Positions 6,002 through 35,769 of a stretch of 37,048 bases of DNA are shown piece after piece. The stretch is from the NCBI GenBank assembly GCA_030638785.1, contig DAOWDY010000212.1:1-37048 (forward strand), in the 5' to 3' direction. Source of the stretch: Candidatus Thorarchaeota archaeon. GTDB taxonomy: Archaea > Asgardarchaeota > Thorarchaeia > Thorarchaeales > Thorarchaeaceae. The notes below the pieces were generated by a model. The model had not been told where the DNA came from. It saw only the letters and a program-made list of their open reading frames with translations, and searched no databases. A program made the translations under genes and the position numbers. The stretch's first letter is position 1. Each line of letters opens with the position of its first letter.

Positions 6002-6040
6002 TTGTGATCTTTCACCGGTCATATTCAATTCACTCCTAAG

Positions 6041-6310: not shown

Positions 6311-6457
6311 TAAAGTAATACGATAGTATTACCTGTCTCCTATTAGCGGTTTCATGAGGATTGGCTCTCAAAGGTTGATCCTAATGTCATCGCCTCCTGG
6401 ACCCCCGTTCTTGGAGTCAATGCGTGATTGGGAGATCATCCAACTGGACGTGATTTA

Positions 6458-6685
6458 ATGAGAGAGAGGAAAACTCGTATACTCGCAGTGAGTATCAGTC
6501 TTTGCTTCGTTCTAGCCCTTGTTTCTGTTGGAGCTCTCTACATGGTTGGCTTCGCTGCAAGTAGTGAAGTACCTCCAGAGGATATCAGTCCTCCTGAGGA
6601 ACCAGTAGAGTATTTTGAGGACATCATTCCTGATGACTTCATTCTAGAAATATGGGATGGATATCGTACTGATGCTCCACATTGA
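6458..6685 (+). CDS. Small membrane-anchored acidic/proline-rich protein (paralog P2)
   Basis: 75 aa: MRERKTRILAVSISLCFVLALVSVGALYM then ...SSEVPPEDISPPEEPVEYFEDIIPDDF. The ATG is preceded by GTGATTTA, as in P1. Confidence 0.6.
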   Translation: MRERKTRILAVSISLCFVLALVSVGALYMVGFAASSEVPPEDISPPEEPVEYFEDIIPDDFILEIWDGYRTDAPH

Positions 6686-6710
6686 TAGTGACTCTTCACC
6701 GGTCACACCC

Positions 6711-6793
6711 GCCTAGCATCGATCCCCTGTGTACCCCCTGGTCCAAGACCATCGGTCTGGGACTACCTCCACAGCCCTGGAGAGATGCTAGGC
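6711..6793 (+). promoter_or_regulatory. GC-rich hairpin between P2 and the tandem-Lrp gene (terminator/attenuator candidate)
   Basis: GCCTAGCATC (6711-6720) and GATGCTAGGC (6784-6793) are exact reverse complements. There is an inner hairpin AGACC-ATC-GGTCT (6747-6759). The segment looks GC-rich relative to its surroundings. Confidence 0.4.
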
Positions 6794-6837
6794 ACCAACC
6801 TCTCACCCATTGAACCACGATTCATCAATTAGGTGCA

Positions 6838-8765: not shown

Positions 8766-8906
8766 ACACAAACATCCAGGCTCTTAGAATATAATGCTAG
8801 TTCTATGTAAATCAAACTAAAACGTGTATATGCACATAATTACTGCAATGTGTGTCAGATCTTCTCAGTACACACCGAAAGCGGGTAAGTGGCCATATGT
8901 TAAGGT

Positions 8907-21467: not shown

Positions 21468-22022
21468 CTAACTTTCATTAGTTTCTTCTGAGTCAATCAA
21501 ACGTATTTCATTCTTAATCACTTTGAGTTTGTCAAGAAGAACTCGTTTTCGATTCTCTAGGAGATACCTTCGAGATTCTAAATCAGGAATACTTTTCATC
21601 GCGTCAAGAATAGTCCTCTCAGGAATAATATCATCAATCCCAAATTCATAAAGGCTCATCAGAAGACTCTCAGTAAAATCAGCAGGTAGTCTTTCAACTG
21701 CTACTGACATGAATTGATAGTTAAAGAGAACGTAGTCTCTGACGAGCTCTTTATGATCCTGTACTAAATCCTTGCCGCTCTTCGTCATTTTGTAATAGGT
21801 TGTGTCTTTGATTTCTGTTTCTGAAATTAGACCTTTCTTAACAAGAGTCTTCAAAGCTGGATACACAGTTCCGGTTTTTGGAACCCATACGTCTTCAAAG
21901 GCTTCCCTGAGGTTTTTGAGTATCTCGTACCCATACTTTGGACCTTCTAGTAATTGAATGAAAATCAACAACTGCATGGGGGTGATCTTTCCACCAGTTG
22001 GAAGAAATGGTCTGATACTCAT
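21468..22022 (-). CDS. PadR-family transcriptional regulator
   Basis: LLEGPKYGYEILKNLREAFEDVWVPKTGTVYPALKTLVKKGLI winged-helix signature, followed by a C-terminal helical domain. It is the first gene of the minus-strand operon. Confidence 0.8.
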   Translation of the reverse strand: MSIRPFLPTGGKITPMQLLIFIQLLEGPKYGYEILKNLREAFEDVWVPKTGTVYPALKTLVKKGLISETEIKDTTYYKMTKSGKDLVQDHKELVRDYVLFNYQFMSVAVERLPADFTESLLMSLYEFGIDDIIPERTILDAMKSIPDLESRRYLLENRKRVLLDKLKVIKNEIRLIDSEETNES

Positions 22023-22034
22023 TTAACATATCTC

Positions 22035-22071
22035 ACTAGGTAGAGTTCTACTGCGTTGTATTCTACCTAGT
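22035..22071. promoter_or_regulatory. 10-bp inverted repeat just upstream of padR (operator candidate)
   Basis: ACTAGGTAGA (22035-22044) and TCTACCTAGT (22062-22071) are exact reverse complements with a 17-nt spacer, 13-49 nt from the padR ATG. Confidence 0.35.
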
Positions 22072-22417
22072 ATTAAGTATGCAGGTTCAGATTGAGAATT
22101 TCATCGACAGACTTCGATGTCAGTTGATATCATTCGACAGAAGTCAGGGGCCACTTTGTAACGTAGCACGTAACGCATCTTTATACCCAATTAAACGAAG
22201 GCTATTATCGCGAATAGTATTCGCAACATCTCTATCTCCTTGCTTAATGAAGCAAACCCGGAGCAATCGAAAGGAACTTCACCCGTGATGAAAAAGATCT
22301 CCTTATCTTTTCCTTAGATTGCGCCGGGGCCTTTTTTTCATGGTCTCTAATCTCTCTGAAAATCCGAGCTATTAGGATATCTATATTGTTTCATATTATA
22401 TTATATGAGGATAAGAA

Positions 22418-22861
22418 TTGTCGAGTGGAGATGTCAAGGGACTCATTGATTCGAGTGAAACTGAGAATGTCAAAGTAATCGGAACTTGTCCATGTTTTAG
22501 TTCAATAGATGGGAAGCCTGTGTGTCTAAATGGAGATACCATAGAGGATATTGATGCACTTGGAGTTCATCCAGAAATCATAGAATCATCTAACGGTTTT
22601 TCATCATGGCAGGAAGATGGTCACCTACCACTTTGTCATAAAGCGGTCCACGTAAATGGATCAGACGAAGCAGTCACCTGTGTAACAAGACAGATACCGA
22701 TTAGAATCCGGAAAAGAAATCTAACCAAGAGCGATCTCTCAGAGGCGCTTGAGCTCTTCCCGTCCGACATGTTCTCATCAGAGCAAGAGTTGTGTACAGA
22801 ATGCCTCTACAATGTAATAGCCGCAACCTACGAAGAAGATGACTCAAATTCATCAATGTGA
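22418..22861 (+). CDS. Hypothetical Cys-containing acidic protein
   Basis: 147-aa ORF that can only start at TTG 22418. GAGGA lies ~8 nt upstream. I recognise no domain. Confidence 0.45.
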   Translation: MSSGDVKGLIDSSETENVKVIGTCPCFSSIDGKPVCLNGDTIEDIDALGVHPEIIESSNGFSSWQEDGHLPLCHKAVHVNGSDEAVTCVTRQIPIRIRKRNLTKSDLSEALELFPSDMFSSEQELCTECLYNVIAATYEEDDSNSSM

Positions 22862-22959
22862 TCCTTCGAGATTGTTTATCTTTAAAAAAGAACCAATGTT
22901 GCGCCAATTACACTCCTTAAATTAGATTATTCCATAATGAATTAGCTAGGAGATGAAAC

Positions 22960-23751
22960 ATGTCGTTCTTGAAAAACAAGATTGCGATGGGAGCGATCCT
23001 TGTGGCGCTTATTGGTGTTGGTTCTTTGGGGGTCCTCTTAGCCCTGAATACACCTGTTGAAGATAATTCAATTAGAATTACATTGCTGGATAATGCAGGT
23101 GTAATGATTGAAGCTGAAGGGTTGCGCATCTATATTGATCCGTACAACCTTCCGGACAATCAGACAGATTTACCAGCTGATGCAATTCTGGTTACTCATC
23201 CTCACGGTGACCACTATCACTTCGGTGCGATAGAAAAGATCGCTACAGATGATACGATTTTCATATTCCCAGAGAATATGTCAACTGAAATCGACCGTCA
23301 TGATGGAGTAGGTGTAAATCCAGGTGACACTGTGGAGATCGGAAGCATCACAGTCACAGCATTTTGGATGTATACATTCCCGCCTGAAGGTACCGACTTC
23401 GAAGCAACACATCCGGTTGAAGCAAATTGGACGAGCTATATCCTTGACATAAATGGATTCAGAATCTTCCATGCAGGAGACTCGAAGTGTATTGACGAGT
23501 ACGAACAGCTGAGTGGTACCATAGATATTGCATTTCTCCCTCTTGGTCCAGGTTGTCAGACCATGTGCGATACCGAGGTTGTTGACGCCCTTGAGATGAT
23601 TGAACCTGAAATATTCATTCCAATACATTACGGGGAGGGAGCGGAAGACAGTTTTGAATCAGTCTATGGTGGACAAGTTGAGAACATGGGAATCGAACTC
23701 ATGATTCTTGCTTACTGGGAATCCACTATCTTTGAATCGGAAACAGTATAG
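22960..23751 (+). CDS. MBL-fold metallo-hydrolase with N-terminal signal anchor
   Basis: ILVTHPHGDHYH (HxHxDH), FHAGDS, PIHYG. The N-terminus is KNKIAMGAILVALIGVGSLGVLLAL. Confidence 0.85.
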   Translation: MSFLKNKIAMGAILVALIGVGSLGVLLALNTPVEDNSIRITLLDNAGVMIEAEGLRIYIDPYNLPDNQTDLPADAILVTHPHGDHYHFGAIEKIATDDTIFIFPENMSTEIDRHDGVGVNPGDTVEIGSITVTAFWMYTFPPEGTDFEATHPVEANWTSYILDINGFRIFHAGDSKCIDEYEQLSGTIDIAFLPLGPGCQTMCDTEVVDALEMIEPEIFIPIHYGEGAEDSFESVYGGQVENMGIELMILAYWESTIFESETV

Positions 23752-23791
23752 AATAAGTCACAAAATACAATAATCTAGTAATGGCGAAATT

Positions 23792-23810
23792 GAGGGGGTC
23801 TCCCCCCCTC
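23792..23810. terminator. G/C hairpin between convergent genes
   Basis: GAGGGGG-TCTCC-CCCCCTC, between the MBL stop (23751) and the RHH gene stop (23817). Confidence 0.4.
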
Positions 23811-23816
23811 ACCACA

Positions 23817-24194
23817 CTATCTAGTCTTCTCCTCAAATGCCTCGAAAGCAAGCCTCTTGGCTTTCTCTTTCATTTCGGCGATATTTCGGCCAATCTCCCT
23901 CACATCTTCATACATATCCATCTGAGCGGAGATGCCCCTCTCAACATAAGCAGAAACAGCAGCAGATCGACTCTTGAACACCTCAAGTTCAACGAGAGCG
24001 TCAAGAATCTCGACAATAGATGAACTCAAGCGAGTCATCACATGGACTTCTCTTTTCTTTAATTCAAACTCCTCGGAATAGAGTTCCCCGAGGATGCGTT
24101 CTTTGAGGGTGACTTGCCCAGTACCACCCTTTGGTTTTGGTTTCTTATCAGACACGGTACGTTCCCCACAGTCTTGTGTGTTACATGAATACAT
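23817..24194 (-). CDS. Ribbon-helix-helix (CopG/Arc/MetJ-like) DNA-binding protein
   Basis: HVMTRLSSSIVEILDALVELEVFKSRSAAVSAYVERGI fits the strand-helix-helix pattern (..SRS..). Flanked by a basic N-terminal tail and a helical C-terminus. ATG at 24194 (TTG at 24200 also in frame). Confidence 0.5.
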   Translation of the reverse strand: MYSCNTQDCGERTVSDKKPKPKGGTGQVTLKERILGELYSEEFELKKREVHVMTRLSSSIVEILDALVELEVFKSRSAAVSAYVERGISAQMDMYEDVREIGRNIAEMKEKAKRLAFEAFEEKTR

Positions 24195-24314
24195 TATCAA
24201 TGACCTATTTATATATTTTGTATTGGTATAATATTAAACAATATATATATAAGGTGTCAGAGGTAATACTATTACTAGTAAGGGTTCCAGTTTGGAATCT
24301 AAGAGGGATATAAA

Positions 24315-25274
24315 ATGGATGAACTCGATAAGACCCTTCTTCTGAAGCTCCTCAGGAATTGCAGAGCCTCCTACAGGCAACTTGCAAGAGAACTAGGAGT
24401 TAGCTGTCCGACCATAAAGAGACGGGTAGATCACTTGGTTGAGGCAGGAGTCATCGAAGCCTTTATTGTGGACATCTCGCAAGAGACTTTGGGGGTTAGC
24501 TGGGCTTATGCTGAGATCACATCTGATCTATCAGAGGACAGAGCTCGTCTGATTCAGGAGATCTCAAGCAATAGTTCAACCAACGAGACCTTCGCAGTAG
24601 GCTCCAAGAGTTACATCTCATTTGCTGAAGTTTCCCCGGGTGGTGTCTATGAGTATGGAAAGTACCTGAGAGGTCTGACTGGTGTAAGTCAAGTAGACCT
24701 CGTTCAAGCACGACAAATACCAACCCAAATGCTGTCTAATCAATGCAAATACTCTACTCGAGGAAAGAAGGTTGAGTTCAGCACTCAACAGAAGACAATT
24801 CTACGTCATCTTATGGATGATGCACGTATCTCAATCCTTAATCTCTCAGCCAGGACAGGATTCAAACCAAAGCGTATCAGAAGACTCCTCAGGGAACTAG
24901 AAGCAAGTGAAGGTGTTCATTTCACTATTCGATTCAATCCATCTGTTGAGTCTTCTATAAGCTTCATTCTCAAGATTGGGTTCGATGAGACCCAGATCAC
25001 TCCAGGCGAGATAGCCACCTGGCTTGAGAACGAATTCCCCCAAGAATACTGGATGTCATTCCTGCTTCTCAATGGGCCTGTGATGATCAACTACATGACA
25101 AGCGACAATCTTCCAAAGATCGAGGTGCTCCTCAGGAAAATGTTGGAGATTCCTTTCATTCGAGATGTTGAAACCATCTTGATCTATCACATACAGAAGC
25201 CTGCATCAAACGGCTCTGATTTAACAGAAGAAGCTGCGGCTGCTTCCGCAGCTGCGGTACCTGTTACTGCATAG
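24315..25274 (+). CDS. Tandem-Lrp/AsnC-like protein, paralog D
   Basis: MDELDKTLLLKLLRNCRASYRQLARELGVSCPTIKRRVDHLVEAGVIEAF plus a second HTH KTILRHLMDDARISILNLSARTGFKPKRIRRLLRELE. GAGGGA Shine-Dalgarno 8 nt upstream. Ala-rich C-terminal tail. Confidence 0.8.
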   Translation: MDELDKTLLLKLLRNCRASYRQLARELGVSCPTIKRRVDHLVEAGVIEAFIVDISQETLGVSWAYAEITSDLSEDRARLIQEISSNSSTNETFAVGSKSYISFAEVSPGGVYEYGKYLRGLTGVSQVDLVQARQIPTQMLSNQCKYSTRGKKVEFSTQQKTILRHLMDDARISILNLSARTGFKPKRIRRLLRELEASEGVHFTIRFNPSVESSISFILKIGFDETQITPGEIATWLENEFPQEYWMSFLLLNGPVMINYMTSDNLPKIEVLLRKMLEIPFIRDVETILIYHIQKPASNGSDLTEEAAAASAAAVPVTA

Positions 25275-25500
25275 CAGAACTTGTCATATCTACTGTTTGT
25301 TGCTACACTTCGTGGATCTTTTATTGTAATATTGTGAGGTGTGACTTTTTGTGATTTCTCTGATTTTTCATGTAATGCCACTGACCAAAGTGGAAATAGC
25401 CAAGTATGTACTTTCACCCCAAATTGTCCGTTTTGTAAAGCTGCCGCGTTACACTTCCGCCCAAGGACCATTCACTTTCTCCTGTATGGAAGGGAGCTTC

Positions 25501-25519
25501 CTAACGCGATTCTATATTC
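25501..25519 (+). promoter_or_regulatory. Conserved TATA-like box (copy 3), abutted by the palindrome GGAAG-GGAG-CTTCC
   Basis: CTAACGCGATTCTATATTC resembles the boxes at 5574 and 6294. The palindrome spans 25488-25501. Confidence 0.35.
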
Positions 25520-25583
25520 ATTCTGTACATGATATTAACTAAGCCATCCTTGAGGTAAACTCGGGGTGGGATGTGGTGAAAAT

Positions 25584-25841
25584 ATGAATAAGAGAAAGAC
25601 TCGGATGATTGCAGGAAGCCTTGCCTTCTGCTTCGTTGTTTGTGCCCTTTCGGTGGGTATCCTGGCCTTCATGGCTCATGGTGCAACACCCAGTGTCTAT
25701 GCAGATCCTGATGTCAATGATTATCGAATCAACGAACCACAGGTTCATGCAGACCCCGATGCCCTCGATTACAAGACAAACACTCCAGCAGTATGGGCTG
25801 ATCCTGGTGCATTAGCTTTCAGGCTAATAACCACGGATTAA
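25584..25841 (+). CDS. Small membrane-anchored acidic protein (paralog P3) with an internal 16-aa tandem repeat
   Basis: 85 aa: MNKRKTRMIAGSLAFCFVVCALSVGILAF, then ADPDVNDYRINEPQVH / ADPDALDYKTNTPAVW / ADPGALAF.... GGTGA Shine-Dalgarno 5 nt upstream. Confidence 0.6.
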   Translation: MNKRKTRMIAGSLAFCFVVCALSVGILAFMAHGATPSVYADPDVNDYRINEPQVHADPDALDYKTNTPAVWADPGALAFRLITTD

Positions 25842-25860
25842 ATGCGTCAGAATCTATTAG

Positions 25861-25897
25861 CCTAGCGTCATGGTTTCCGTGGCGCTAGGTCCTTTTT
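25861..25897 (+). terminator. Hairpin plus T-tract downstream of P3
   Basis: CCTAGCG (25861-25867) and CGCTAGG (25883-25889), followed by TCCTTTTT. Confidence 0.5.
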
Positions 25898-25934
25898 CAT
25901 ATCAAATTTCCACGGAATAAGAGTGGTGTAAACT

Positions 25935-26927
25935 ATGGATTGGTTGGATAAAAAGATCGTAACACGACTGCTCGGGAATTGTCGAGAGTCCTATAGAAGC
26001 ATTGCAAGAGAATTTGATGTAACCTGCCCCACAATCAAGAAGAGAGTAGATCGACTTCGTCAGTGGGGTGTGATTCAGCGATTCTCTGCAGAACTGTCAC
26101 AAGAGGCTCTTGGTGTCGACTGGGTCTTGGCTGATCTCCGTACAAGTACGAACAATGGCAGAGCGAAAATCCTTCAGCAATTTGCTGACAATGAGTGTGT
26201 TGGAGAAGTGTTCATGCTTGGAGGAGGACGTTACTATGTCTTTGCAGAGGTGTGCCCCAGTGAGCGAAAGGAACTCCTATCCTGCATCCGTCAGCTTGAT
26301 GATGTAAAATCAGTTGACATTTCAGATATCATGCCGATCCGTAATGGTGTTATAAATGGCGATTGCCGATTTACCACTCGAGGCAGCAATATCAAGCTTA
26401 CCAAGAACCAGACGACGATACTCAGGTTCCTCACCTCAAATGCTCGAATGCCTGTGAATCAGATCTCTGAATTGACTGGTTTCAGTGCAAAATTCATTCG
26501 TCGTGTGATTCGAGACTTCATCGAGTGCGACGCAGTGAACCTGACTCTGCGTTTGAACCTACCCTCATCAGGGAGAATCAACTTCATCCTTAAGTACCGT
26601 CTAAACGAAGAAACCACTGGTCCTGTGGATGCTACTGAGTTGATAACAGATATCTATCCTGAAGAACACTGGTTTACGTTCTTTGACCCTGATGCAGAAG
26701 ACATGCTCCATTACATGACTGCGAAGAGCATTACAGATGTTGAACACATCTTCCAGGAAATCAATCAGCTTCCCTACTCGGAGGGTGTGGAGGCTAACAT
26801 AATCTACAGTACAATGAAGTCAGAGGGTAGGACTAGATCGTTCCTTCAAGACATCTCAAAAAAAGTGAACTCGGAATCAAAGGGGCTTCCCCTAGTGATG
26901 GATAATCGAGTTTCAGTGTCATATTGA
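25935..26927 (+). CDS. Tandem-Lrp/AsnC-like protein, paralog E
   Basis: MDWLDKKIVTRLLGNCRESYRSIAREFDVTCPTIKKRVDRLRQWGVIQRF plus a second HTH TTILRFLTSNARMPVNQISELTGFSAKFIRRVIRDFIE. GTGGTG Shine-Dalgarno. Closest to paralog A. Confidence 0.8.
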   Translation: MDWLDKKIVTRLLGNCRESYRSIAREFDVTCPTIKKRVDRLRQWGVIQRFSAELSQEALGVDWVLADLRTSTNNGRAKILQQFADNECVGEVFMLGGGRYYVFAEVCPSERKELLSCIRQLDDVKSVDISDIMPIRNGVINGDCRFTTRGSNIKLTKNQTTILRFLTSNARMPVNQISELTGFSAKFIRRVIRDFIECDAVNLTLRLNLPSSGRINFILKYRLNEETTGPVDATELITDIYPEEHWFTFFDPDAEDMLHYMTAKSITDVEHIFQEINQLPYSEGVEANIIYSTMKSEGRTRSFLQDISKKVNSESKGLPLVMDNRVSVSY

Positions 26928-26936
26928 TTGATTCGG

Positions 26937-26967
26937 GATTCAGCGCAATGCGTTGAATCTCATTTTT
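26937..26967 (+). terminator. Strong hairpin plus T-tract between tandem-Lrp E and the C25 peptidase gene (terminator/attenuator candidate)
   Basis: GATTCAGCGC-AAT-GCGTTGAATC (10-bp stem including one G-T pair), followed by TCATTTTTC. It starts 10 nt after the stop of E. Confidence 0.45.
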
Positions 26968-27053
26968 CTGTTTCCAAACCATCGATGATTAGATTTTTTA
27001 GGAAGCATGGAGCATCTTCGCAGCTAGCTGTACGGCTAGGTGTTGCGTGGGAA

Positions 27054-30000
27054 ATGAATCTACGAAAATCAGTATCATCGAAATCAGTTCTGAAAATGGT
27101 TGCTCTGTTTGTTACAGTGATATTATTCACGCAATCGGTCGCAATAATTGAGGGTGTGATTTCACCTTCAAACAGCGAATCAAGAGAAGAAGTCAGAAGA
27201 CCAACAACAAAGTACGAATCTTCTTTTGATGTCACACCCGTACCAGTAGCTGAAAGTCCAGATTGGATTTCATTCGATGATAATAGTACGGACCCTGGAA
27301 CACCAGCAGAGGCACATGTGACTCTTACCGATACCTTGGGATTAAGAGTTGTCGCCGATTTCTATGGATTTTGGGATAGGAATATCACTCTGAATAATGA
27401 AACATTCTTGTACGATCGACCAGAAATTCCTGGTGCAAGTTATATGACAATATCTGGCAAACCGGAGTTACCTAGATTTACACAGATAGTAGAAGTTCCA
27501 CATGATGTCTGGATAACAGTTGACGTACTGCAGAATACATCCGCTCTGATTTCAAATTTTAATATTACTCCAGCTCAACCCCCTTCTATAGCAATTTGGA
27601 ATCCTGGTATAGACATGAATTTTACTGATGTAGTTGATGAGATAGGGAATGACAGTGCCTTTTACCCAGACTACGCAGTGACTCTTGAAGGTTGGAATGC
27701 GACAGAACCTCAAGTAATGAGAGGCAGAAGACTCCTCTTGGTCAGTTTCTATCCGTTTCAATACAATCCCTTTAACAATACTCTAAAGGTACACTCACGC
27801 ATTGAAGTAGACATTAATTACAGTTTTCCTGCACAAATAGAAGCTGCAAATTCTTCATTGCACTCACTAGAATTTGAAAAAATCTTTATTAATAAGTTAT
27901 TGAACCCTAAAACCTGGGAGCCCCAATCGTATGCAGAATGTGGACCACCAACTCCCTTCGTAACTGCAGAGGATGTATATCCTTCATTTCCTGAATCAGG
28001 AGCAGAATATCTAATTATCGTCGAAGATGCTTTCAAACCTGCTGCTGACAGACTAGCTGAATGGAAGACACGGAAAGGAGTTCCTGCAGCAGTTTTCACA
28101 ACAACAGAAGCTCGTGCTTATGCTAGTGATTATTCTAGGTTTGATACAATTGAAGGTTTCATTTCAACTATATATAAAAAATGGGCGAAGGTGCCAGAAT
28201 ATATACTCCTATTCGGAGATTCAGAACATATTCCAGCAATCTATGAAACGAAACATCCTGATGGGTTCTTTAACGTCAAAGGTAAAAAGTATTCAGCTGA
28301 TGATAGGGAGGTAGCCACAGATCTTCATTACTTTACAATGGAAGGGAGAAAAGATCTTTTTCCTGATTTCTTCTATAGTCGTATTTCTGTCAACACACTC
28401 GAAGAGGCAGACAACGTTGTAAACAAAATTCTGGAATATGAGAAATTTCCTCCTGAAAACCAGAATGATGATTTCTTCAATGACATCCTCGCAACCTCAT
28501 TCTTTGAAGATGGTGAAGAACCCTATGCCTATGAAGATAGGGGTTCAGGTTTTTTGACTTACATTGACGAAATTAGAGAATATCTAGACAGCGTGACAAA
28601 CTACCAACTCCATCTGAACTACACTACCAACTCCCCTGTGGCAGATGATCCTCAAGTTATTTTGAAAGGCATTCATGGCAATGTTATTCCATATAATCTT
28701 GAAGATTACCCTAATTTCAAATGGATGCAATGGGACGATCTAGATGGTGCATTATCAAATATAACTGCAAACATTGATGAAGGTAGATTCTTTGTCATCA
28801 GCTTCGATCATGGTTCTTCAGAAAATATGTATCGAATGGATTTAGGACGTTTTGAATCATTTGATGGATGGGCTGTTCCGCGGTTCAATACGACGTCTGT
28901 TGAACTGTTGCAAAATGATAAACTCTTTCCATTTGTGTTTAGTGCAGCATGTAATGTAGGATGGTTTGATGGAGAAACAGACCAAGATAATGCTAGACGT
29001 CAGGATTCCGTGTACACAAACAACAATGAATCTCTCTCAGAGATACTCTTAAGGAAATCCGATGGTGGTGCAATCGCTACTATTGGTGCAACAAGGCTTA
29101 GTTATAATCTATTGTCATTCTATTTACTGGAGGGTATAATCCAATCATTTTGGCCCAGCTCCCTTGAACCAAATAATCAACCATTATATGAATTTGGGGC
29201 AGCGCTTCAACAAGGAAGATTACATTTACTCACACGAAGAGAGAATGATGCCATTCGACAGGTATCCTTAGAGATGTATCATTTGTTTGGTGATCCTGAA
29301 ACTTCTCTTTGGACTGATGTGCCAGCGGAATTCTCAGTTCATTTTCCTGCAACAATTGGAAGAACGAGTGCTCAAAGTTTTGGTTTTACAGTACGCGATG
29401 GAGAAAATCTAGTTCCTAATGCTAGAGTATGCATACAGCAAGGCACACAAATTTACAAGGTTCAGTATACAAATGAAAAGGGAGAAATCTATTTTGACAT
29501 TCCGGACATTTCCATTGGACCAATGAACGTCACAATTACTAAACATAACTTTAGGCCTAACATATCAATTGTTCTCGTTGATAATAGCGCTCCCTTTGAA
29601 GCGGGGCAAAATCAAGGATTCGATTTAAGTGAGGTTGCCGCAGGACCAGATCCATATATCTACAGCCAGTGGGATCCTCTTACATGGCATCTTGGTGGAC
29701 AGATAAAAACCTACGACAATCCTTGCATAGAAATTTACAGCATTACAACAGATACACAGACCACATCCATTACCACAACAACAGCTGTAAATTCCTACAA
29801 TTTGCACGAAGGTCAAGATTATCTAATTAGAGTAAAGATATTGAATGGTGGAACAATGAATGCAGTAAACATAGCAGTCAACCTAAGCTATGCATACTTT
29901 GGAGCAGGTCAATCTTGGACTGAGATAGATACCAAACTCATAAACGTGACTCAGTCTGGTGACCCATTAATTCCATCTACTCATGGACAGACGTATGTAG

Positions 30001-30524
30001 AATTTCAATGGATTTCAACTATTGAGGGAACGGCATGTTTTCGGGTGGGTATTGATCTAGATTCCGACATCAACTTTGCGAATAATTATGGACAAGAGAG
30101 TGCATATCAAAACAAATCAAGTTCTCTATCGACCGTAGGTTTCCTTATGGGAAATCCAACTCAATACGTGAGATATCCATTTATTGAACTTCGACAAGCT
30201 TGTCGAGCTGTTCCTATTATGAGTGCATCAGTAGTAGGATATTATTCCCGAGTTCTTACCACTGAAGAGTTCGACCCACTAGGTTTTCTTGGTGACTTTA
30301 CAGATATAGTAGATATTAATGAGTCGCGAATATTCATTGTTGAAGTGTTTTACAATGGAGAGCTTGTTGGCGGATTTGAGATAAACGCTACAAGAATCGA
30401 GGAACCTGTTGAACCAACCTCAAATGGTGGGCTCACACCAGAACAAATCCTTTTAATTATCGCAGGAGCTGCAGGAGCTGTGATTGTGATCGTCATAGTG
30501 ATAATTAAATATAAAAAGAAATAG
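27054..30524 (+). CDS. Peptidase C25 (gingipain-like, clan CD) surface protein with signal peptide, C-terminal beta-rich domains and TM anchor
   Basis: FVISFDHGSSENMY (His, codon 28809-28811) and FPFVFSAACNVGWFDG (Cys, codon 28950-28952), then GGAIATIGATR and HLFGDPETSLWT, all parallel to gingipain motifs (GHGSE / VACVNGDF / FGDPSL). N-terminus MNLRKSVSSKSVLKMVALFVTVILF; C-terminal helix ILLIIAGAAGAVIVIVIVII plus KYKKK. Many N-x-S/T sequons. The ORF is open from 26928, and ATG 27054 was chosen for its signal-peptide-like N-terminus. Confidence 0.85.
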   Translation: MNLRKSVSSKSVLKMVALFVTVILFTQSVAIIEGVISPSNSESREEVRRPTTKYESSFDVTPVPVAESPDWISFDDNSTDPGTPAEAHVTLTDTLGLRVVADFYGFWDRNITLNNETFLYDRPEIPGASYMTISGKPELPRFTQIVEVPHDVWITVDVLQNTSALISNFNITPAQPPSIAIWNPGIDMNFTDVVDEIGNDSAFYPDYAVTLEGWNATEPQVMRGRRLLLVSFYPFQYNPFNNTLKVHSRIEVDINYSFPAQIEAANSSLHSLEFEKIFINKLLNPKTWEPQSYAECGPPTPFVTAEDVYPSFPESGAEYLIIVEDAFKPAADRLAEWKTRKGVPAAVFTTTEARAYASDYSRFDTIEGFISTIYKKWAKVPEYILLFGDSEHIPAIYETKHPDGFFNVKGKKYSADDREVATDLHYFTMEGRKDLFPDFFYSRISVNTLEEADNVVNKILEYEKFPPENQNDDFFNDILATSFFEDGEEPYAYEDRGSGFLTYIDEIREYLDSVTNYQLHLNYTTNSPVADDPQVILKGIHGNVIPYNLEDYPNFKWMQWDDLDGALSNITANIDEGRFFVISFDHGSSENMYRMDLGRFESFDGWAVPRFNTTSVELLQNDKLFPFVFSAACNVGWFDGETDQDNARRQDSVYTNNNESLSEILLRKSDGGAIATIGATRLSYNLLSFYLLEGIIQSFWPSSLEPNNQPLYEFGAALQQGRLHLLTRRENDAIRQVSLEMYHLFGDPETSLWTDVPAEFSVHFPATIGRTSAQSFGFTVRDGENLVPNARVCIQQGTQIYKVQYTNEKGEIYFDIPDISIGPMNVTITKHNFRPNISIVLVDNSAPFEAGQNQGFDLSEVAAGPDPYIYSQWDPLTWHLGGQIKTYDNPCIEIYSITTDTQTTSITTTTAVNSYNLHEGQDYLIRVKILNGGTMNAVNIAVNLSYAYFGAGQSWTEIDTKLINVTQSGDPLIPSTHGQTYVEFQWISTIEGTACFRVGIDLDSDINFANNYGQESAYQNKSSSLSTVGFLMGNPTQYVRYPFIELRQACRAVPIMSASVVGYYSRVLTTEEFDPLGFLGDFTDIVDINESRIFIVEVFYNGELVGGFEINATRIEEPVEPTSNGGLTPEQILLIIAGAAGAVIVIVIVIIKYKKK

Positions 30525-30562
30525 AAAGTAAAAAGGTAAGCTGGAATTATTATTGTGTATAT

Positions 30563-30584
30563 GCACTTTTTAGTGCTGTTTTTA
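30563..30584 (+). terminator. Short hairpin plus T5 after the C25 gene
   Basis: GCACT-TTTT-AGTGC followed by TGTTTTTA. The TTTTATAG that follows may double as a TATA box for the next gene. Confidence 0.35.
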
Positions 30585-30636
30585 TAGCATGAAGATTTCA
30601 CATGAAGGTTGATTCATATAATCAGGAGGAACATGA

Positions 30637-31047
30637 ATGCCCTACAATTATACTACAAAATATCAAAATGCGTTGCTGGCTATTATTAGAATATGCCAAA
30701 GAAACGACAAAAAGCGAGAAGCTATAAGGGATACAGCAGACGTGAATAATGCTCCGCCTAATGTCGGAAGAAACAAGTTCTGGAAGGAACTATTAAAGAC
30801 AGACAATAATGAGGCTGCATGGTTAATGGTCAAATGGATGAAAAGTCTGGACACCCAAGCTAAAATTGATGAATTCAAGATAGCGAGAGGGGATATATTA
30901 GAAGACCTACTTTATAATTTTGCTCAGCAAAATATAGAGGACATATGCCCACCAAAAGCAGGGGAAAAGGTATCGCTTAGTGATGAATTAATGGATCTAT
31001 TAGCACTAGGACTTGGACCATGGCCGAAAGGTAATGGAGAATGGTAA
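30637..31047 (+). CDS. Hypothetical protein
   Basis: 136 aa. AGGAGG Shine-Dalgarno ~7 nt upstream and a TATA-like TTTTATAG ~50 nt upstream. No recognisable domain. Confidence 0.55.
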   Translation: MPYNYTTKYQNALLAIIRICQRNDKKREAIRDTADVNNAPPNVGRNKFWKELLKTDNNEAAWLMVKWMKSLDTQAKIDEFKIARGDILEDLLYNFAQQNIEDICPPKAGEKVSLSDELMDLLALGLGPWPKGNGEW

Positions 31048-31084
31048 TCAGGTCAAAAATGAATCGATCTAAAAACCCACTCCA

Positions 31085-32575
31085 CTACTGACTCTTTAGA
31101 ATCGCATCAAGAGTTGAATCTAGGAATGGAAGATTGAATTCTCGAGAGAGCGTTCTAATCGCATCTACGGAAGCTCGTAAGGAGTCATCATCATTTATTG
31201 CAAGCGCCATTCTAGCCCTAAGAATGTGAGAAAGACCAAGAATTCCCGGAAGATCATCCGATTTTGCTCTTTCCTCAAGAAGTGTCAACCAAGGTAGTGA
31301 ACCATCACTAGTTACCGTATCTGCCTTTCGACAAGCCTGAAATACATCAATTCGTGCTAGATAATACAGAAATATCAAAGCGTTTTCTATTGCAGATTTA
31401 CCCTCATATAAATCCAAAGCATTTCTGATGTTACTTGTTGCTGAATCAAGATTCCCTTCATCCAAATCTATGACACCCGTGACAAAATACAACCAAGCTA
31501 AGAGAACTTCCAATCCAGATTTCATAACATCTTCATGAATGGTGTCAATCAAAACACGGGCTTCGGTCTTTCGCCCTAAAAGGATAAGAGACCATGCTTG
31601 ATTTAATATCGCGCGTGGATATTGAGAGGGATTACTATCAAAATCTACCTCAGCATATCTTGCCCACTCTAATCCAGCATTGGGATCTCCAATCGCAATG
31701 TATACTGTAGACAACAAGATTGCCTGCGAACTTCTTGGAAGATCCATAGATTCACGAATCCTAATCGATTCTAAGGTTCGTTTAATAGCTTGATCATATT
31801 CACCTCTGGTTGCGTAAAGTCTTGCAAGATAGAGCAATGTTGATGCAATTCCTGCTTTATTCCCTAAGGAGTTCATGACTTCATACGCTCTTAGAAGTGA
31901 ATCTCTTGCCTCTATTATGCTTGAGCTTCGTAGGTAGTCTGATTTTATTCTTAAGTGCCATGCTAATCTGACTAGGTCATCATGATTCTCAGCACTCCTT
32001 ATTGCTTGATTCGTAGATCGGATTTTTACTTCCAAGTCACCATCTCTAGCAGCTCTCTCTCGATAACAATCGAACAAAATGTTCTCGAAAAACTCGAATT
32101 CGGAAGAGCTTTGAATCAACTCCTCTAACTTCTCAAGATTATTTGTATCATAGAGAGTCTTTGGATATTGGAGTAAGTCAGCCTCGAATTTGAGGAACCG
32201 CATCTCGATAGCCAGCCAATCAGGAGGATCTGTCGCAAGAACTTGATTTGCAGATTCGTGTACTTTCTCTAAATCTTCAAGATTCCCTTGATGGACACTA
32301 GCATAGAACAGATTGGGACGAAGAATTGGGAGTTTCCCATACTTTTTCCCAATGGCTTCAATACTTTCCATATCCAATAGAAGGGCAGAGTGATGGATTG
32401 CAAAATAGATTGCTAAATCTGGAACTTCTTCATCTAGTACTTGATTATTCAAACGTATGACAAAATCCTGATAATTCTCAGCTTCATCCATAATCGACTG
32501 CATGATGTCACGTGATTCGTCATCCAAGAAGGGGAAGTACATAGTAATAGTCCCAATTGAATCCAGCAAGTCCAA
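31085..32575 (-). CDS. TPR-like alpha-solenoid protein, tandem paralog T1
   Basis: 496 aa, all-helical. TPR-like units (e.g. LLYLARLYATRGEYDQAIKRTLESIRI, WARYAEVDF...) and a conserved N-terminal module GTITMYFPFLD...IYFAIHHS...ILRPNLFYASVHQG shared with T2. Non-ATG start (TTG 32575, or TTG 32569). Confidence 0.75.
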   Translation of the reverse strand: MDLLDSIGTITMYFPFLDDESRDIMQSIMDEAENYQDFVIRLNNQVLDEEVPDLAIYFAIHHSALLLDMESIEAIGKKYGKLPILRPNLFYASVHQGNLEDLEKVHESANQVLATDPPDWLAIEMRFLKFEADLLQYPKTLYDTNNLEKLEELIQSSSEFEFFENILFDCYRERAARDGDLEVKIRSTNQAIRSAENHDDLVRLAWHLRIKSDYLRSSSIIEARDSLLRAYEVMNSLGNKAGIASTLLYLARLYATRGEYDQAIKRTLESIRIRESMDLPRSSQAILLSTVYIAIGDPNAGLEWARYAEVDFDSNPSQYPRAILNQAWSLILLGRKTEARVLIDTIHEDVMKSGLEVLLAWLYFVTGVIDLDEGNLDSATSNIRNALDLYEGKSAIENALIFLYYLARIDVFQACRKADTVTSDGSLPWLTLLEERAKSDDLPGILGLSHILRARMALAINDDDSLRASVDAIRTLSREFNLPFLDSTLDAILKSQ

Positions 32576-32641
32576 CCTCCCAAATGATATCTACAACATT
32601 ATCTTTCAGGAGTATTGAATGATGAGTCTTTCGTTATGCTT

Positions 32642-34132
32642 TCATGGCAATTCTAGGAACAACTTCAATTCGTTTCTAAGATATGCCATACTCGGATCCT
32701 TTCCAATCTCTCGAATCTTGTAAACTAATTCTTCTAGCTCCGTTTCATCATTTCGTGCAAGAGCGACCTTTGCCTTCATTAGTAGAACCATAGCTGAGAT
32801 TCCGGGCAGACTATCCTTGACTGCCTTATCCTCAAGAAATTGAAGCCACGGGTTCTCGAATCCGTTTAAGACCTCTCCTGAAGATGAAACCAATACTGCT
32901 ACATCAAGTTGAGCCAGGTGTTGCAAGAAAATGAGATGATTATCAAGCGTACCTTTCCTTTCGTAAATCTCGAGTGCTTCTTCCAAGCTTTTTGACGCCG
33001 ATTCAGTATCTCCCTGAACTAACTCATAGACTCCTGTTACAAAAGATAACCATGCAAGAAGTATCTCAACCCCAGACTTTAGAATAAGTTCTCGTGTGGA
33101 GTCAATAAGGTCAAGGGCTTCATCATACCTCTTCAGGAGAATCAACGACCAGGCTCTGTTTAATTGACCTCGCGGTTTTACCGTCGGAGAAGCGTGTGCT
33201 TCAGCTTCAGCAAGTCTTGCCCATTCTATAGCTGTTTCTGGTTCTGATATCGCGTTGTAGTAAGTCGAGAGCACAATGGCGTATACGGCTGTCGATAAAT
33301 CCAAAGATTGTCTGATTCTAATGACTTCCAAGATGCGTTCGATTGCAAGATTATATTCACCACGTACAGCATCAATCCGAGCAAGGTAGAACAAGATTGA
33401 CGCCATCCCTGCCTTATTCCCTATATCTTTCATGATGCGATATGCCTTCATTAGAGAATTTCTAGCCTCAACCAAGTCAGTAGTCTGTAAGTAGTCAAAT
33501 AGGAATCTCAAATGATATGCTAACCTTACGATGTCGTCACACTTTTGTGCGCTCTCAATCGCAAGTGTGATGCATCGAAGTGCCTCTTCAGTATCACCAT
33601 CTCTTGATGCTTTTTCCCTCATACAATCATATAGAATGTTCTCAAAGAATTCGTATTCAGGAGAGCTCTGAATTAATCCCTCCAATACATCCAGATTGGC
33701 TGTGTTGTAGAGCGTCTTTGGGTATTGAAGCAAATCTATTTCAAATTTCAGGAATCTCATCTCGATCTCGAGCCAGGTGGGAGGATTAGCAGCGAGCACA
33801 GCATCCACTGATTCATGAACTTTAGAAACATCATCAAGTTTACCTTGGTGTACGCTGGCATAGAAGAGATTAGGACGAAGTATTGGCATCTTACCATATT
33901 TCTTCCCGATGGCTTCGATGTTGTCCATATCAAGTAGTAAACCTGAATGGTGGATTGCGAAGTAAATCACTAAGTCAGGAACATCTTCAGTAATTACTCT
34001 CTCCTTCAAACGCATAACGAAGTCGTAATAATTTGCAGCATCATCCATTATGGTTTGCATGATTCTCCTTGATTCTTCATCCAAGAAAGGAAAGTACATT
34101 GTGATTGTACCAATTGGTTCCACTATGTTCAA
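32642..34132 (-). CDS. TPR-like alpha-solenoid protein, tandem paralog T2
   Basis: 496 aa, collinear with T1 along its full length. The start is TTG 34132 or GTG 34123, 4 nt after the T3 stop, with AGAGG Shine-Dalgarno. Confidence 0.75.
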   Translation of the reverse strand: MNIVEPIGTITMYFPFLDEESRRIMQTIMDDAANYYDFVMRLKERVITEDVPDLVIYFAIHHSGLLLDMDNIEAIGKKYGKMPILRPNLFYASVHQGKLDDVSKVHESVDAVLAANPPTWLEIEMRFLKFEIDLLQYPKTLYNTANLDVLEGLIQSSPEYEFFENILYDCMREKASRDGDTEEALRCITLAIESAQKCDDIVRLAYHLRFLFDYLQTTDLVEARNSLMKAYRIMKDIGNKAGMASILFYLARIDAVRGEYNLAIERILEVIRIRQSLDLSTAVYAIVLSTYYNAISEPETAIEWARLAEAEAHASPTVKPRGQLNRAWSLILLKRYDEALDLIDSTRELILKSGVEILLAWLSFVTGVYELVQGDTESASKSLEEALEIYERKGTLDNHLIFLQHLAQLDVAVLVSSSGEVLNGFENPWLQFLEDKAVKDSLPGISAMVLLMKAKVALARNDETELEELVYKIREIGKDPSMAYLRNELKLFLELP

Positions 34133-34136
34133 CCTC

Positions 34137-35624
34137 TTAGTGATTCAGCTTTCGCATTAAGTCTTCAGACTCTTGATGTAAGAAAGTCATACTCGCTTGT
34201 TCTGCAACCTGAATCACCTGATCTATCATAGTTCTAGCTTCTTCATATCGACCCTGTTTCATTCGATGATGTGCATTGAGGAGGATAACCTGCGCCTTAA
34301 TCCCAGGCAAGTCCTTGCTCTCTGCAATCTCTTCAAGTAATCTGAGCCAGTGTCCAGAACTGTCCGCATCCCGATTGGTTTCATCAACTTCTAAGGAGAT
34401 TACCTCAGTCTTTGCAAGATAGTAAAGGCAGACTGAATCGAGAATGGCCCTTCCTAATCTGCGATTGATATCGTAAGCCTTCTCAAAACTAACAGATGCT
34501 GCGAAATAGTCTGTCTCAGCGAATTCAACCAATCCAGTGGTGAAATAATGTTGAGCAAGAAGTGGTTCGATCCCTGACCTCAGAATATCTTCTCTCGTTC
34601 CGTCAACGATTGCCTTTGCCTTATCGATCTTACCCTGACCAGCGAGAGCCCAAGCTATCTCAAGCTTTGCTCTTGGTAGTTGTGAAACTTGATTGGCAAA
34701 TTCTGCTTCAGCTAATTCAGCCCATGTTAGACCGTTGTCATAATCCCCTGCAGCATTGAAGAGAACAGCCAAGTTTGATGCTGACATACCATAAGGCATC
34801 CCTAATGACTCCCGATTCCGAATGGCCTGAAGAGAGTATTCGATTGCTGAGTTATACTCACCTCGAATAGCATTGTTCAATCCTAATTGATGAAGCACAT
34901 TACTAAGACCTACTTTATCACCCAAAGAAGTGAGAATATCTTTCGATACGAATAGTAACTGTCGCGCAAGCTGATGATCAGCACGCTGTATCAAGGAGGC
35001 CTTGATTCTATGAAGATGTCCTTCAACAAATTCATCACAATACTCGCGAGATAGTTCTAGTGCTTTATCGTTACACCGGATAGCTTCTTCATGATTGCCC
35101 TCATTTTTTGCGAGCTGTGCCATTGTGTCAAAATATCGATATTCAAGACACTGCAACTCTGAGTTCTCTTTCAGTATAGATTCTAATTTTCCAACAGTAT
35201 CATGCGTCTTCGATTCGCTTGTGAAGTCAAAGACATCCACTTTCAATTTACTCATCAACATCTCAAATTTAATCCAAAGATTGTCTGTAGATTCAAACAC
35301 CTGATCGGCAACCTTACGTGCTTTAACCCACTGATCCTTTCCCCTAAGATAAGATCCTGCGAAGTAAAGATTGGGTTGAATGATAGATAGGTCACTATAA
35401 TTTCTGGCTATTTTATCCAGACTATCATAGTCATAGAGATGAGTGGAATGATGAACGGCAGAAAAAACTTCGAGGTTTCTCGCTTTAGAGGAACAGACTC
35501 GATCTGTTAGACGTTTTGAGAAATTACTGTAATTTTGTGCTGATTTCATTAATTCCATTATGGTCTGTTTAGTACCCGAATCGACGAATGGCAGATGGAG
35601 TGTTATTGTACCGAGAGGTTTCAT
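34137..35624 (-). CDS. TPR-like alpha-solenoid protein, tandem paralog T3 (divergent)
   Basis: Same architecture (LGTITLHLPFVD...HHS...IQPNLYFAGSYL..., LHQLGLNNAIRGEYNSAIEYSLQAIRNRE). ATG 35624 gives an N-terminus matching T1 and T2; the ORF is open to a TTG at 35693. Confidence 0.7.
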   Translation of the reverse strand: MKPLGTITLHLPFVDSGTKQTIMELMKSAQNYSNFSKRLTDRVCSSKARNLEVFSAVHHSTHLYDYDSLDKIARNYSDLSIIQPNLYFAGSYLRGKDQWVKARKVADQVFESTDNLWIKFEMLMSKLKVDVFDFTSESKTHDTVGKLESILKENSELQCLEYRYFDTMAQLAKNEGNHEEAIRCNDKALELSREYCDEFVEGHLHRIKASLIQRADHQLARQLLFVSKDILTSLGDKVGLSNVLHQLGLNNAIRGEYNSAIEYSLQAIRNRESLGMPYGMSASNLAVLFNAAGDYDNGLTWAELAEAEFANQVSQLPRAKLEIAWALAGQGKIDKAKAIVDGTREDILRSGIEPLLAQHYFTTGLVEFAETDYFAASVSFEKAYDINRRLGRAILDSVCLYYLAKTEVISLEVDETNRDADSSGHWLRLLEEIAESKDLPGIKAQVILLNAHHRMKQGRYEEARTMIDQVIQVAEQASMTFLHQESEDLMRKLNH

Positions 35625-35769
35625 AAAATCTAGCCCCCACTCGGTGACGCGACCAGCATATCTCACATCAAATGTAGATGAGTCTTTCGACAAATCAAGT
35701 TAACCAAGCCTTTTTCTTCAAGTTGCTTTTGTATGACATTAGAATATCGTGAAATAGAGAGAATCAACT

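Follow-up and report, generated by a model that had tools for sequence, protein, structure and literature searches.

In this study, we focus on a compact locus in a 37,048-nt stretch of DNA from a Candidatus Thorarchaeota archaeon (metagenome-assembled genome, contig DAOWDY010000212.1; hereafter the window, meaning the whole stretch that was analyzed), where a small gene encoding a repeat-bearing peptide, P3, lies directly ahead of the gene for a predicted regulator with two fused Lrp-like units, tandem-Lrp E (LrpE). Judged by gene order and sequence conservation at related loci (labelled L005-L025, the comparison being confined to one phylum, Thorarchaeota relatives), the core unit is a two-gene Thorarchaeota cassette consisting of a promoter, the peptide gene, a hairpin with a T-run, and the tandem-Lrp gene. 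A first-pass annotation had proposed a larger, five-part module, in which a promoter-like box, P3, a hairpin, LrpE with a second hairpin, and a gingipain-like C25 peptidase follow one another; all five elements were found in place and co-directional on the + strand, and the peptide-hairpin-LrpE core of the proposal stood, whereas C25 proved to be an optional neighbor rather than a fixed member. The features of the locus are the following.

25432-25454, + strand: candidate operator, the imperfect palindrome TTTGTAAAG-N7-GTTACA, about 60 bp 5′ of the TATA-like box of the peptide gene.
25487-25519, + strand: predicted core promoter of the peptide gene, with a TGGAAG box, TAACGCG resembling a B recognition element (BRE), and the TATA-like TTCTATATTC.
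25584-25841, + strand: P3, an 85-aa peptide predicted to be exported or membrane-anchored, with its likeliest start at ATG 25584 and its stop codon ending at 25841.
25860-25897, + strand: peptide-regulator hairpin, a 14-bp stem (25860-25890) followed by T5.
25935-26927, + strand: LrpE, a single chain of about 330 aa with two halves, each a helix-turn-helix (HTH) plus a beta-alpha-beta-beta-alpha-beta (RAM-like) domain.
26935-26967, + strand: hairpin 3′ of LrpE, a terminator-like 12-bp stem (26935-26961) followed by T5, 8 nt past the gene.
27054-30524, + strand: C25 cysteine peptidase (gingipain family), 1156 aa, with a signal, a propeptide, a catalytic domain, C-terminal beta-rich domains, and a transmembrane anchor.

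A peptide open reading frame (ORF) of 77-101 aa is located 88-110 nt upstream of the LrpE ortholog in every related locus with upstream DNA. The pair is present in the window, L005, L006, L007/L013, L008, L009, L015, L016/17, L018, L019 (twice), L022/23, L024, and L025, is kept across LrpE identities of 46-82% (more than 12 loci), and is mirrored in the contigs that carry the 27 peptide members and 26 LrpE homologs, which are largely of equal size. It outlasts inversions and the reshuffling of all other neighbors in L008, L009, L016, and L022, and it has been duplicated as a unit at least twice, as pep-Lrp-pep-Lrp in L019 and as P2-LrpA, a second copy described below, in the window. By this record of synteny, the peptide and tandem-Lrp genes are a conserved, co-duplicating pair, for which chance linkage is essentially excluded, as it is not for C25. 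The annotation had held that the linkage is no one-off and had proposed a comparative check of small-peptide, tandem-Lrp, and C25 synteny; the outcome was divided, with peptide-LrpE linkage at all loci where it could be read and a C25 gene in only about 6 of the 11 informative lineages. Most neighborhood data for the related loci come from exact-protein look-ups, and a related-locus scan with a narrower Lrp alignment recovered five true loci in the genome collection and two in the metagenome collection. The LrpE homologs carry the NCBI organism name Candidatus Thorarchaeota archaeon, and identical copies of the LrpE protein occur in GCA_023139155.1 and three sediment metagenome scaffolds.

P3 itself is, on sequence evidence, a real and conserved gene. 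A GGTGA sits 5-9 nt 5′ of ATG 25584 (the alternative ORF as listed would start at GTG 25566 and encode 91 aa), and comparison with close orthologs gives ratios of nonsynonymous to synonymous substitution (dN/dS) of 0.16-0.41 at dS of 0.5-1.4, which is near saturation; the frame is therefore under purifying selection. According to the alignments, the peptide orthologs share one plan: a basic N-terminus (MNKRKTR), then about 24 hydrophobic residues, then an acidic tail, which in the P3 type consists of three repeats of about 16 aa, each closing with [FYWH]-[RK]-x-[NDI]-x-P; in fuller form, the linear motif reads [VL]-x-[FYWH]-[RK]-[ITV]-[ND]-x-P, again in three copies. The repeats in the window end in ...DYRINEP, ...DYKTNTP, and ...AFRLITTD, their conserved basic residues are R48, K64, and R80, and the peptides derived from them would be SVYADPDVNDYR, INEPQVHADPDALDYK, TNTPAVWADPGALAFR, and LITTD. 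Arg or Lys is kept in every repeat, as an invariant Arg in the third and with an isolated exception in the first, and two sequence clades follow the same plan (ADPDxLD[FYH][RK]TNxP and QVVD[YFH]RIDxP). An AlphaFold2 model from a 23-sequence alignment places a helix at residues 3-33 with a predicted local distance difference test score (pLDDT) of 80-93, while the tail stays below 50 and is thus better regarded as a set of linear motifs than as a folded domain. The basic N-terminus and hydrophobic helix suggest that P3 is exported or membrane-anchored, and the annotation's reading of it as a membrane-anchored repeat peptide agrees with the helix and the three-repeat acidic tail, its topology being predicted.

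A profile search returned 27 family members, all annotated as hypothetical protein and all those with an organism name assigned to Thorarchaeota, and an exhaustive hidden Markov model search of 1.84 billion cluster representatives yielded 13 clusters (50% identity) plus two spurious long proteins; as far as these searches reach, the peptide family is a Thorarchaeota-only orphan. Within the window, the motif occurs three times in P3, once in P2 (YRTDAP, at the C-terminus), and nowhere else. Three homologs (P0037, P0042, and P0057) have the third repeat swapped for another conserved C-terminus, ..[KR]YE.FGEIP[IV]....FPRL[IV]P, that still closes with aromatic-x-Arg-hydrophobic-hydrophobic-Pro, and a further homolog without the usual third repeat, P0034, has a C-terminus unlike these. 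Other identities for P3 were considered and rejected: its sequence has no lipobox, as a lipoprotein would have; its N-x-P sites are no sequons for N-glycosylation; and as a precursor of a ribosomally synthesized and post-translationally modified peptide (RiPP), it would be out of place in a window without a maturase and bears an export signal. An ApyD-like radical-SAM protein was seen only in L006 and L022/23, adjoining a different small ORF.

The upstream region of the peptide gene carries conserved elements of two kinds. The promoter-like box TGGAAGGGAGCTTCC at 25487-25501 holds the palindrome GGAAG-N4-CTTCC, with TGGAAG (25487-25492) as its left arm; TAACGCG (25502-25508) abuts the box, and the TATA-like TTCTATATTC occupies 25510-25519. 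TGGAA, TAAC, and TAT are conserved in 10/10 aligned orthologous regions, giving the consensus TAACGYG plus a TATA-like box, and the core promoter pattern with 0 mismatches has a single occurrence in the window. Farther upstream, at -151 to -163 from the ATG, the same 10 orthologous regions contain a palindromic block with the consensus TTTGTAA(A/C)G-N6/7-(C)TT(T/A)ACA, whose left half, TTTGTAA(A/C)G, is invariant in 10/10 and whose right half, TT(T/A)ACA, is kept in most; the L016 site is a perfect 20-bp palindrome. This block is a plausible candidate operator for a dimer-like HTH regulator or a two-HTH protein. A shared operator before C25, the tetratricopeptide repeat (TPR) genes, or P1/P2 was rejected because the long palindrome occurs only once in the window. 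As a separate observation, a half-site lies at 22150-22190 in a second promoter of the same design (CCACTTTGTAACG ... GTAACGCATCTTTATAC), between the PadR gene and orf147, and a GC-rich hairpin with a T7 run follows about 140 nt past it (window 22150-22340) with no convincing ORF between; one possibility for this element is a small RNA, another a long leader.

The hairpins with T-tracts that the annotation had placed after P3 and after LrpE were both confirmed, and they are the top two terminator-like sites in 22000-31200. The one at 25860-25890 has a folding energy of -24.1 kcal/mol (z = -7.6 vs shuffled sequences; antisense only -15.1) and is conserved in 11 loci, with a T-rich run after it in nearly all. 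In the alignment of these loci, 90.5% of cells are paired vs 27-44% in slid controls, six of the 14 pairs show double-sided changes (e.g., U-A to C-G), and the sense strand has G-U at several positions; the compensatory changes and sense-strand G-U pairs speak for a structured RNA and against a DNA operator. The second hairpin, at 26935-26961 (-17.5 kcal/mol, z = -4.8 vs shuffled; antisense -9.3), has a stem, GAGATTCA...TGAATCTC, conserved only in the close clade of the window, L005, L015, and L019a, and L019b bears the variant stem GATATTCG...CGAATCTC 3′ of its Lrp gene. Neither is a known RNA family, since an Rfam scan of the whole window gave 0 families at the gathering score. Downstream of the first hairpin, the LrpE genes have a GGTG Shine-Dalgarno-like box 7-9 nt 5′ of their ATG, which itself follows the T-run by only about 45 nt. 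From this layout, we infer that peptide and LrpE genes are co-transcribed, with partial termination or 3′-end stabilization after the peptide gene, and that the hairpin after P3 is probably a leaky terminator, an attenuator, or a 3′-end stabilizer.

LrpE is treated here as a predicted DNA-binding regulator. Pfam identifies an AsnC-type HTH (PF13404) at residues 1-42 with 48.3 bits (cut-off 27) and a second HTH at about residues 155-197 (HTH_24 in two stretches, MarR_2), and the AlphaFold2 model, with a pLDDT of 88 and a predicted template modelling score (pTM) of 0.84, arranges the chain in the order HTH-RAM-HTH-RAM. For the annotation's tandem-Lrp with RAM-like domains, Pfam confirms the HTHs, and the RAM-like fold is a prediction of this model, the Pfam RAM family (PF01037) having no match on LrpE at E <= 0.01. 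In fold searches, either half finds archaeal and bacterial Lrp/AsnC regulators, with 22-24% identity across about 135 residues; a PDB profile search retrieved Lrp/AsnC regulators only, its alignment reaching residue 128-136; and among NCBIfam models LysM and AsnC score highest, with LysM the best at 65.7 bits. The best full-length fold match is NirDL (4ch7, 4czc; E = 2e-11, TM 0.58-0.62, 10-11% identity), the only tandem Lrp-fold chain among the matches. The AhbB and AhbA models reach 18.5 bits (NF040707, cut-off 125) and 14.2 bits (NF040708, cut-off 140), respectively, in the HTH region only, and Pfam family PF17805 had no match on LrpE.

The C25 gene encodes a gingipain-family peptidase, as the annotation had recognized; the assignment follows from Pfam, a profile match to RgpB, and the catalytic His and Cys, while activity is predicted. 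Peptidase_C25 (PF01364) scores 179.8 bits (cut-off 23) and Propeptide_C25 (PF08126) 48.4 bits (cut-off 22), and the family profile finds RgpB (E = 4.6e-26) and the RgpB pro-domain (E = 6.5e-16). Cys633 (FSAAC633) aligns with RgpB Cys244 (FDVAC244), and a DH586GS stands where RgpB His211 (H211-G-S) is expected, a position deduced from alignment numbering because the stretch lies outside the printed alignments; both Cys633 and DH586GS are invariant in five C25 homologs. Read from its sequence, the protein starts with a hydrophobic signal and has at its C-terminus a transmembrane segment that ends in KYKKK.

Where a C25-family gene adjoins LrpE (about 6 of the 11 informative lineages), its orientation and architecture vary: it has the same order and strand in the window, L019, L015, and L025, and the opposite strand in L007/L013, and L006 carries a 464-aa form on the opposite strand without a signal peptide, at 22.9 Pfam bits (cut-off 23). 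At C25-less loci, NosD/beta-helix proteins, LrpD, or TPR genes take its place. Copies of C25 that occupy the same slot (window 27054-30524, L015 8438-11977, L019 10471-12564) are only 34-37% identical, whereas LrpD, LrpE, and the metallo-beta-lactamase (MBL)-fold gene of the window, L015, and L019 are 70-87% identical. By these comparisons, the C25 gene is either hypervariable or has been repeatedly replaced, and its very fast evolution in a conserved slot suggests diversifying selection at the cell surface. C25 is, on its distribution, a frequent but dispensable neighbor, and it, the GPWP ORF, and the TPR proteins described below are accessory rather than core; the claim that C25 belongs to the module thus survives for the lineages in which it adjoins the pair and falls short for the five without it and for its shifting orientation.

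The window holds five paralogs of about 320 aa with an AsnC-type HTH within 37 kb, 24-39% identical to one another, and proteins of the fused-dimer Lrp type seem to have multiplied in this lineage. The four besides LrpE, together with the second peptide cassette, are as follows.

5738-7821, + strand: paralogous cassette, comprising P1 (5738-6001), P2 (6458-6685), a hairpin (6711-6793), and LrpA (6838-7821).
6838-7821, + strand: tandem-Lrp A, the paralog closest to LrpE (39% identity).
7824-8771, - strand: tandem-Lrp B, convergent with LrpA, with 2 nt between them.
10972-11889, - strand: tandem-Lrp C, adjoining a class-III aminotransferase gene.
24315-25274, + strand: tandem-Lrp D, the paralog ahead of the peptide gene in most lineages.

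The annotation had noted a recurrence of the peptide-hairpin-regulator arrangement at 5500-7821; P1, P2, the hairpin, and LrpA are indeed present, but the T-tract is missing and the motif appears once, in P2 only. P1 and P2 form a tandem duplication that takes in about 250 nt of upstream DNA, and P2 retains one P3 repeat motif (YRTDAP) where P1 has none. The hairpin in the P2-LrpA spacer (6711-6793) is long (-50 kcal/mol over 146 nt, z = -4.4), and its base, GCCTAGCATC...GATGCTAGGC, is identical in sequence to the base of the P3 hairpin; a shared basal stem without a T-run hints that the stem sequence itself may be recognized, beyond any terminator function. A homolog search with P1/P2 found near-identical same-species copies only, so the recurrence reflects within-genome paralogy and not a second independently conserved family. 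The upstream leaders of P1 and P2 (5480-6460) share about 250 nt of conserved sequence with two promoter-like boxes, TGGAAG-N7-GGTATACAG and TTAACRCGTGTTTATAC, and the untranslated leader of P1/P2 is unusually long, at about 120 nt.

We read the cassette tentatively, at a probability of roughly 0.4, as a peptide/regulator feedback circuit that would follow Phr-Rap logic with unrelated parts. The peptide promoter would transcribe both the peptide and LrpE genes, and the hairpin with its T-run would stop or stabilize most transcripts after the peptide gene, giving much peptide and little regulator. The peptide would be inserted or exported via Sec with its tail outside the cell, and cleavage behind the conserved Arg/Lys in each repeat would then turn the tail into short peptides; the extracellular Arg/Lys-type protease responsible might be the adjacent C25 where present and another protease elsewhere. 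The tandem-Lrp, bound at the palindromic site, would tie expression of the cassette and of its variable neighbor genes for exported or surface proteins (C25, NosD/beta-helix, the GPWP ORF, TPR proteins) to the peptide signal. Gingipains cut after Arg or Lys, and the conserved Arg/Lys of each repeat would fit a gingipain-type cut. The proteolysis-dependent peptide signaling envisaged in the annotation is consistent with these data. A more specific version, which we consider unlikely, is an Asgard peptide-pheromone (quorum-sensing-like) system, in which a Sec-exported precursor with three pheromone copies would be cut after Arg/Lys by a gingipain-type surface protease and the freed peptides would be sensed, directly or through neighboring TPRs, by a fused-dimer Lrp with feedback on the cassette and surface genes.

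Several observations weigh against the circuit. On the peptide side, the hydrophobic segment, at about 24 residues, is long, and an obvious A-x-A cleavage site is missing from several orthologs, so that the product may remain anchored instead of being released. A cytoplasmic Lrp would need re-import or an intermediary to sense an exported peptide, and no oligopeptide permease (Opp) genes were present in the window or the related loci examined; moreover, the ligands of RAM domains in known Lrp proteins are amino acids and not peptides. The role of the peptidase is weakened by its absence next to the pair in L008, L016/17, L022/23, L024, and L018, about half of the lineages, and by its evolution, which on the identities above is far faster than that of the peptide motif. 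In gingipains, Arg/Lys specificity is given by an acidic S1 residue (RgpB Asp163, Kgp Asp516); in the window C25, none of several acidic residues could be assigned this part, as RgpB 137-212 lies outside both aligned stretches. Among the regulatory elements, the right half of the candidate operator is poorly kept in some loci (weaker in L007 and L009), and the P1/P2-LrpA copy is without a T-run and mostly without the motif. Finally, the LrpA-like ortholog of L009 has no intact peptide ORF but a degenerate remnant, with the promoter box TTAACAC..TTTATAC kept.

The main rival, possible if on balance doubtful, is a nutritional (feast/famine) Lrp regulon, in which LrpE would sense amino acids and control exported proteolysis and surface genes (C25, NosD-type), and the peptide would be an exported accessory, such as a tethered mimic of the protease's substrate, an inhibitor of the protease, or a docking element for it, and no signal. 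The halves of LrpE do resemble the amino-acid-responsive LysM, AsnC, FL11/PH1519, and ST1022, LrpC with its aminotransferase neighbor sits in a typical Lrp context, large exported proteins stand nearby (C25 in the window, NosD/beta-helix in L016, L018, and L022), and a conserved R/K per repeat would equally suit a protease substrate or decoy. It sits less well with such a regulon that the invariant partner of LrpE is the peptide rather than any protease or surface protein, that the pair duplicates without a protease (L019; P2-LrpA in the window), and that a strict motif of 6-8 residues in triplicate with a dedicated operator-bearing promoter exceeds the needs of a generic substrate. A distinctly unlikely alternative makes the peptide an effector (archaeocin-like, surface coating, or adhesion), the tandem-Lrp its pathway-specific regulator, and the hairpin the device that sets a high peptide:regulator ratio. 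A small exported product, a leaky terminator, and a downstream gene are the classic layout of bacteriocin/lantibiotic structural genes, which the cassette matches; the family is lineage-restricted and fast-evolving, and the neighborhood contains variable island genes, TIR-NACHT-WD40 and radical-SAM genes in L006 and L022 among them. An effector of this kind is hard to reconcile with a strongly acidic, disordered tail that has no amphipathic or Cys-rich core, with repeats that are conserved rather than diversified, and with the lack of conserved genes for immunity, transport, or maturation alongside the peptide.

Two further explanations bear on the regulator and on the linkage itself. That the tandem-Lrp is a siroheme-decarboxylase-type enzyme (NirDL/AhbAB) or another small-molecule binder instead of a regulator is very unlikely: the best full-length structural match is NirDL (4ch7, TM 0.59), the sole tandem Lrp-fold chain retrieved, but identity is as low as 10-11%, the scores with the AhbB and AhbA models fall far below cut-off and cover the HTH only, the AsnC-type HTH is strong in the first half with a second HTH in the second half, five paralogs share 37 kb with no heme or d1 genes nearby, and a conserved palindromic site lies upstream. 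Least probable of all, and largely refuted for the peptide-Lrp pair, is the notion of five independent genes that are neighbors by descent only, without a functional module. The comparison within a single phylum does let shared ancestry add to synteny, and the C25, TPR, and GPWP-ORF content varies between neighborhoods; against this stand the adjacency of peptide and Lrp genes through the rearrangements in L008, L009, L016, and L022 and two independent tandem duplications, as well as the retention of spacing, hairpin, and promoter elements while synonymous sites are saturated (dS ~1).

A full-text literature search turned up no account of the peptide family, of Asgard proteins with tandem Lrp units, or of archaeal quorum sensing by peptides. 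Even if the peptide is no signal, a triple-repeat orphan peptide paired with a regulator, a fused (HTH-RAM)x2 Lrp subfamily, and the hairpin between the two genes are apparently undescribed. If the pheromone version were true, the tandem duplicates of the pair would represent distinct pherotypes, and the system would be the first peptide-based cell-cell signaling in archaea and would add a new ligand class for the Lrp/RAM fold. The locus is compact and sharply defined, with its candidate operator within a 90-bp promoter fragment, and is thus directly testable.

Beyond the cassette and C25, two further features of the window recur near the pair.

30637-31047, + strand: orf136, with a C-terminal G-x-GPWP-x3-G motif, a recurrent neighbor without a Pfam or NCBIfam match.
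31085-35693, - strand: three paralogous cytoplasmic TPR proteins of about 500 aa (31085-32575, 32642-34132, 34137-35693).

The first of these has weak homology to L015 o139 and L025 o163, with which it has the C-terminal motif in common. Small ORFs of 136-163 aa between C25 and TPR genes form a family (window 30637-31047, L015 12054-12965, L025 4387-4878, L024 3817-4287), in which the WWYL..AEGA segment is common to most members, not to orf136 or L024 o156, and G-x-GPWP-x3-G, present in orf136, L015 o139, and L025 o163, is degenerate in L024 (GPWD). The corresponding stretch of L006 and L022/23 contains another, unlike small ORF and a B12-binding radical-SAM protein like the RiPP enzyme ApyD (269.7 bits, below cut-off). 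The TPR triad matches TPR_12 and MalT-like TPR families in Pfam, with no HTH match, and its orthologs occur near the pair in L006, L007, L015, L022, L024, and L025; the TPR proteins of about 490 aa and the GPWP small ORF are linked to the pair at least as often as C25. Kinship of the triad with RRNPP receptors was rejected at the sequence level, PDB profile matches being generic TPRs only (LGN/Pins, kinesin light chain, designed TPRs).

Ahead of the pair in most loci, and sometimes inverted as a block, lies a conserved Thorarchaeota cluster (22418-25274 in the window) comprising the Cys-rich orf147, an exported MBL-fold hydrolase with an HPHGDH motif and a hydrophobic segment near its N-terminus, a 127-aa protein encoded on the opposite strand, and tandem-Lrp D. 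Past the pair, where gene content is variable, L006 14599-18522 encodes a 1307-aa protein beside a TPR gene, which from its sequence apparently has a TIR-like N-terminus, a STAND-type P-loop NTPase, and WD40-like repeats, with the flavor of a defence/conflict island. G+C content is about 42% all along the window, and composition shows no break at the peptide-LrpE locus; a search of the window for tRNA and tmRNA genes found none, and a scan of viral contigs gave no match and no sign of a virus-borne version.

Parts of the locus can be compared with several known systems. Like the gingipains RgpB and Kgp and the sortase PorU of the type IX secretion system (T9SS), the window C25 combines Propeptide_C25 with Peptidase_C25, keeps the His/Cys pair, and is predicted to be extracellular; unlike them, it is archaeal, has a C-terminal transmembrane helix instead of the T9SS C-terminal domain, and carries long extra C-terminal domains, and it reaches just 50.9 bits with the PorU model (cut-off 420). 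LrpE shares with the Lrp/AsnC regulators (LysM, FL11/PH1519, ST1022, E. coli AsnC) an AsnC-type HTH, followed in its model by a beta-alpha-beta-beta-alpha-beta domain, at 22-24% identity per half, and a palindromic candidate site upstream of a promoter, while it differs from them in fusing two HTH-RAM units within 330 aa, in not matching PF01037, and in its obligatory pairing with the gene of a putatively exported peptide. The tandem Lrp-like architecture in one chain is also that of NirDL and AhbA-AhbB, from which LrpE is set apart by an identity of 10%, model scores far below cut-offs, intact HTHs, and the lack of tetrapyrrole genes nearby. Lantibiotic/bacteriocin operons have a hairpin with partial read-through after the precursor gene, and fungal Kex2 repeat pheromone precursors consist of units bounded by a basic residue; the cassette resembles them in its small, presumably highly expressed precursor, its putative read-through hairpin, and its repeats bounded by a basic residue, and departs from them in having no maturation, immunity, or transport genes and in its unrelated organism and protein families.

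The closest parallel in logic is offered by the RRNPP(A) systems of Bacillota and phages (Rap-Phr, PlcR-PapR, AimR-AimP), to which the cassette has no sequence or structural relation. There the regulator is a TPR receptor, usually with an N-terminal HTH; here the partner gene of the peptide encodes an Lrp/AsnC fold, the peptide gene lies upstream instead of downstream, the host is an Asgard archaeon, and no Opp permease was seen in the loci. The RRNPP(A) systems include Phr propeptides with tandemly duplicated pheromones, which extracellular proteases mature (PMC11343458). In both systems, a small ORF for a propeptide with an export signal, predicted in the present case, adjoins the gene of a cytoplasmic regulator, each propeptide bears several copies of a short motif, an extracellular protease is encoded nearby, and the pairs duplicate as units.

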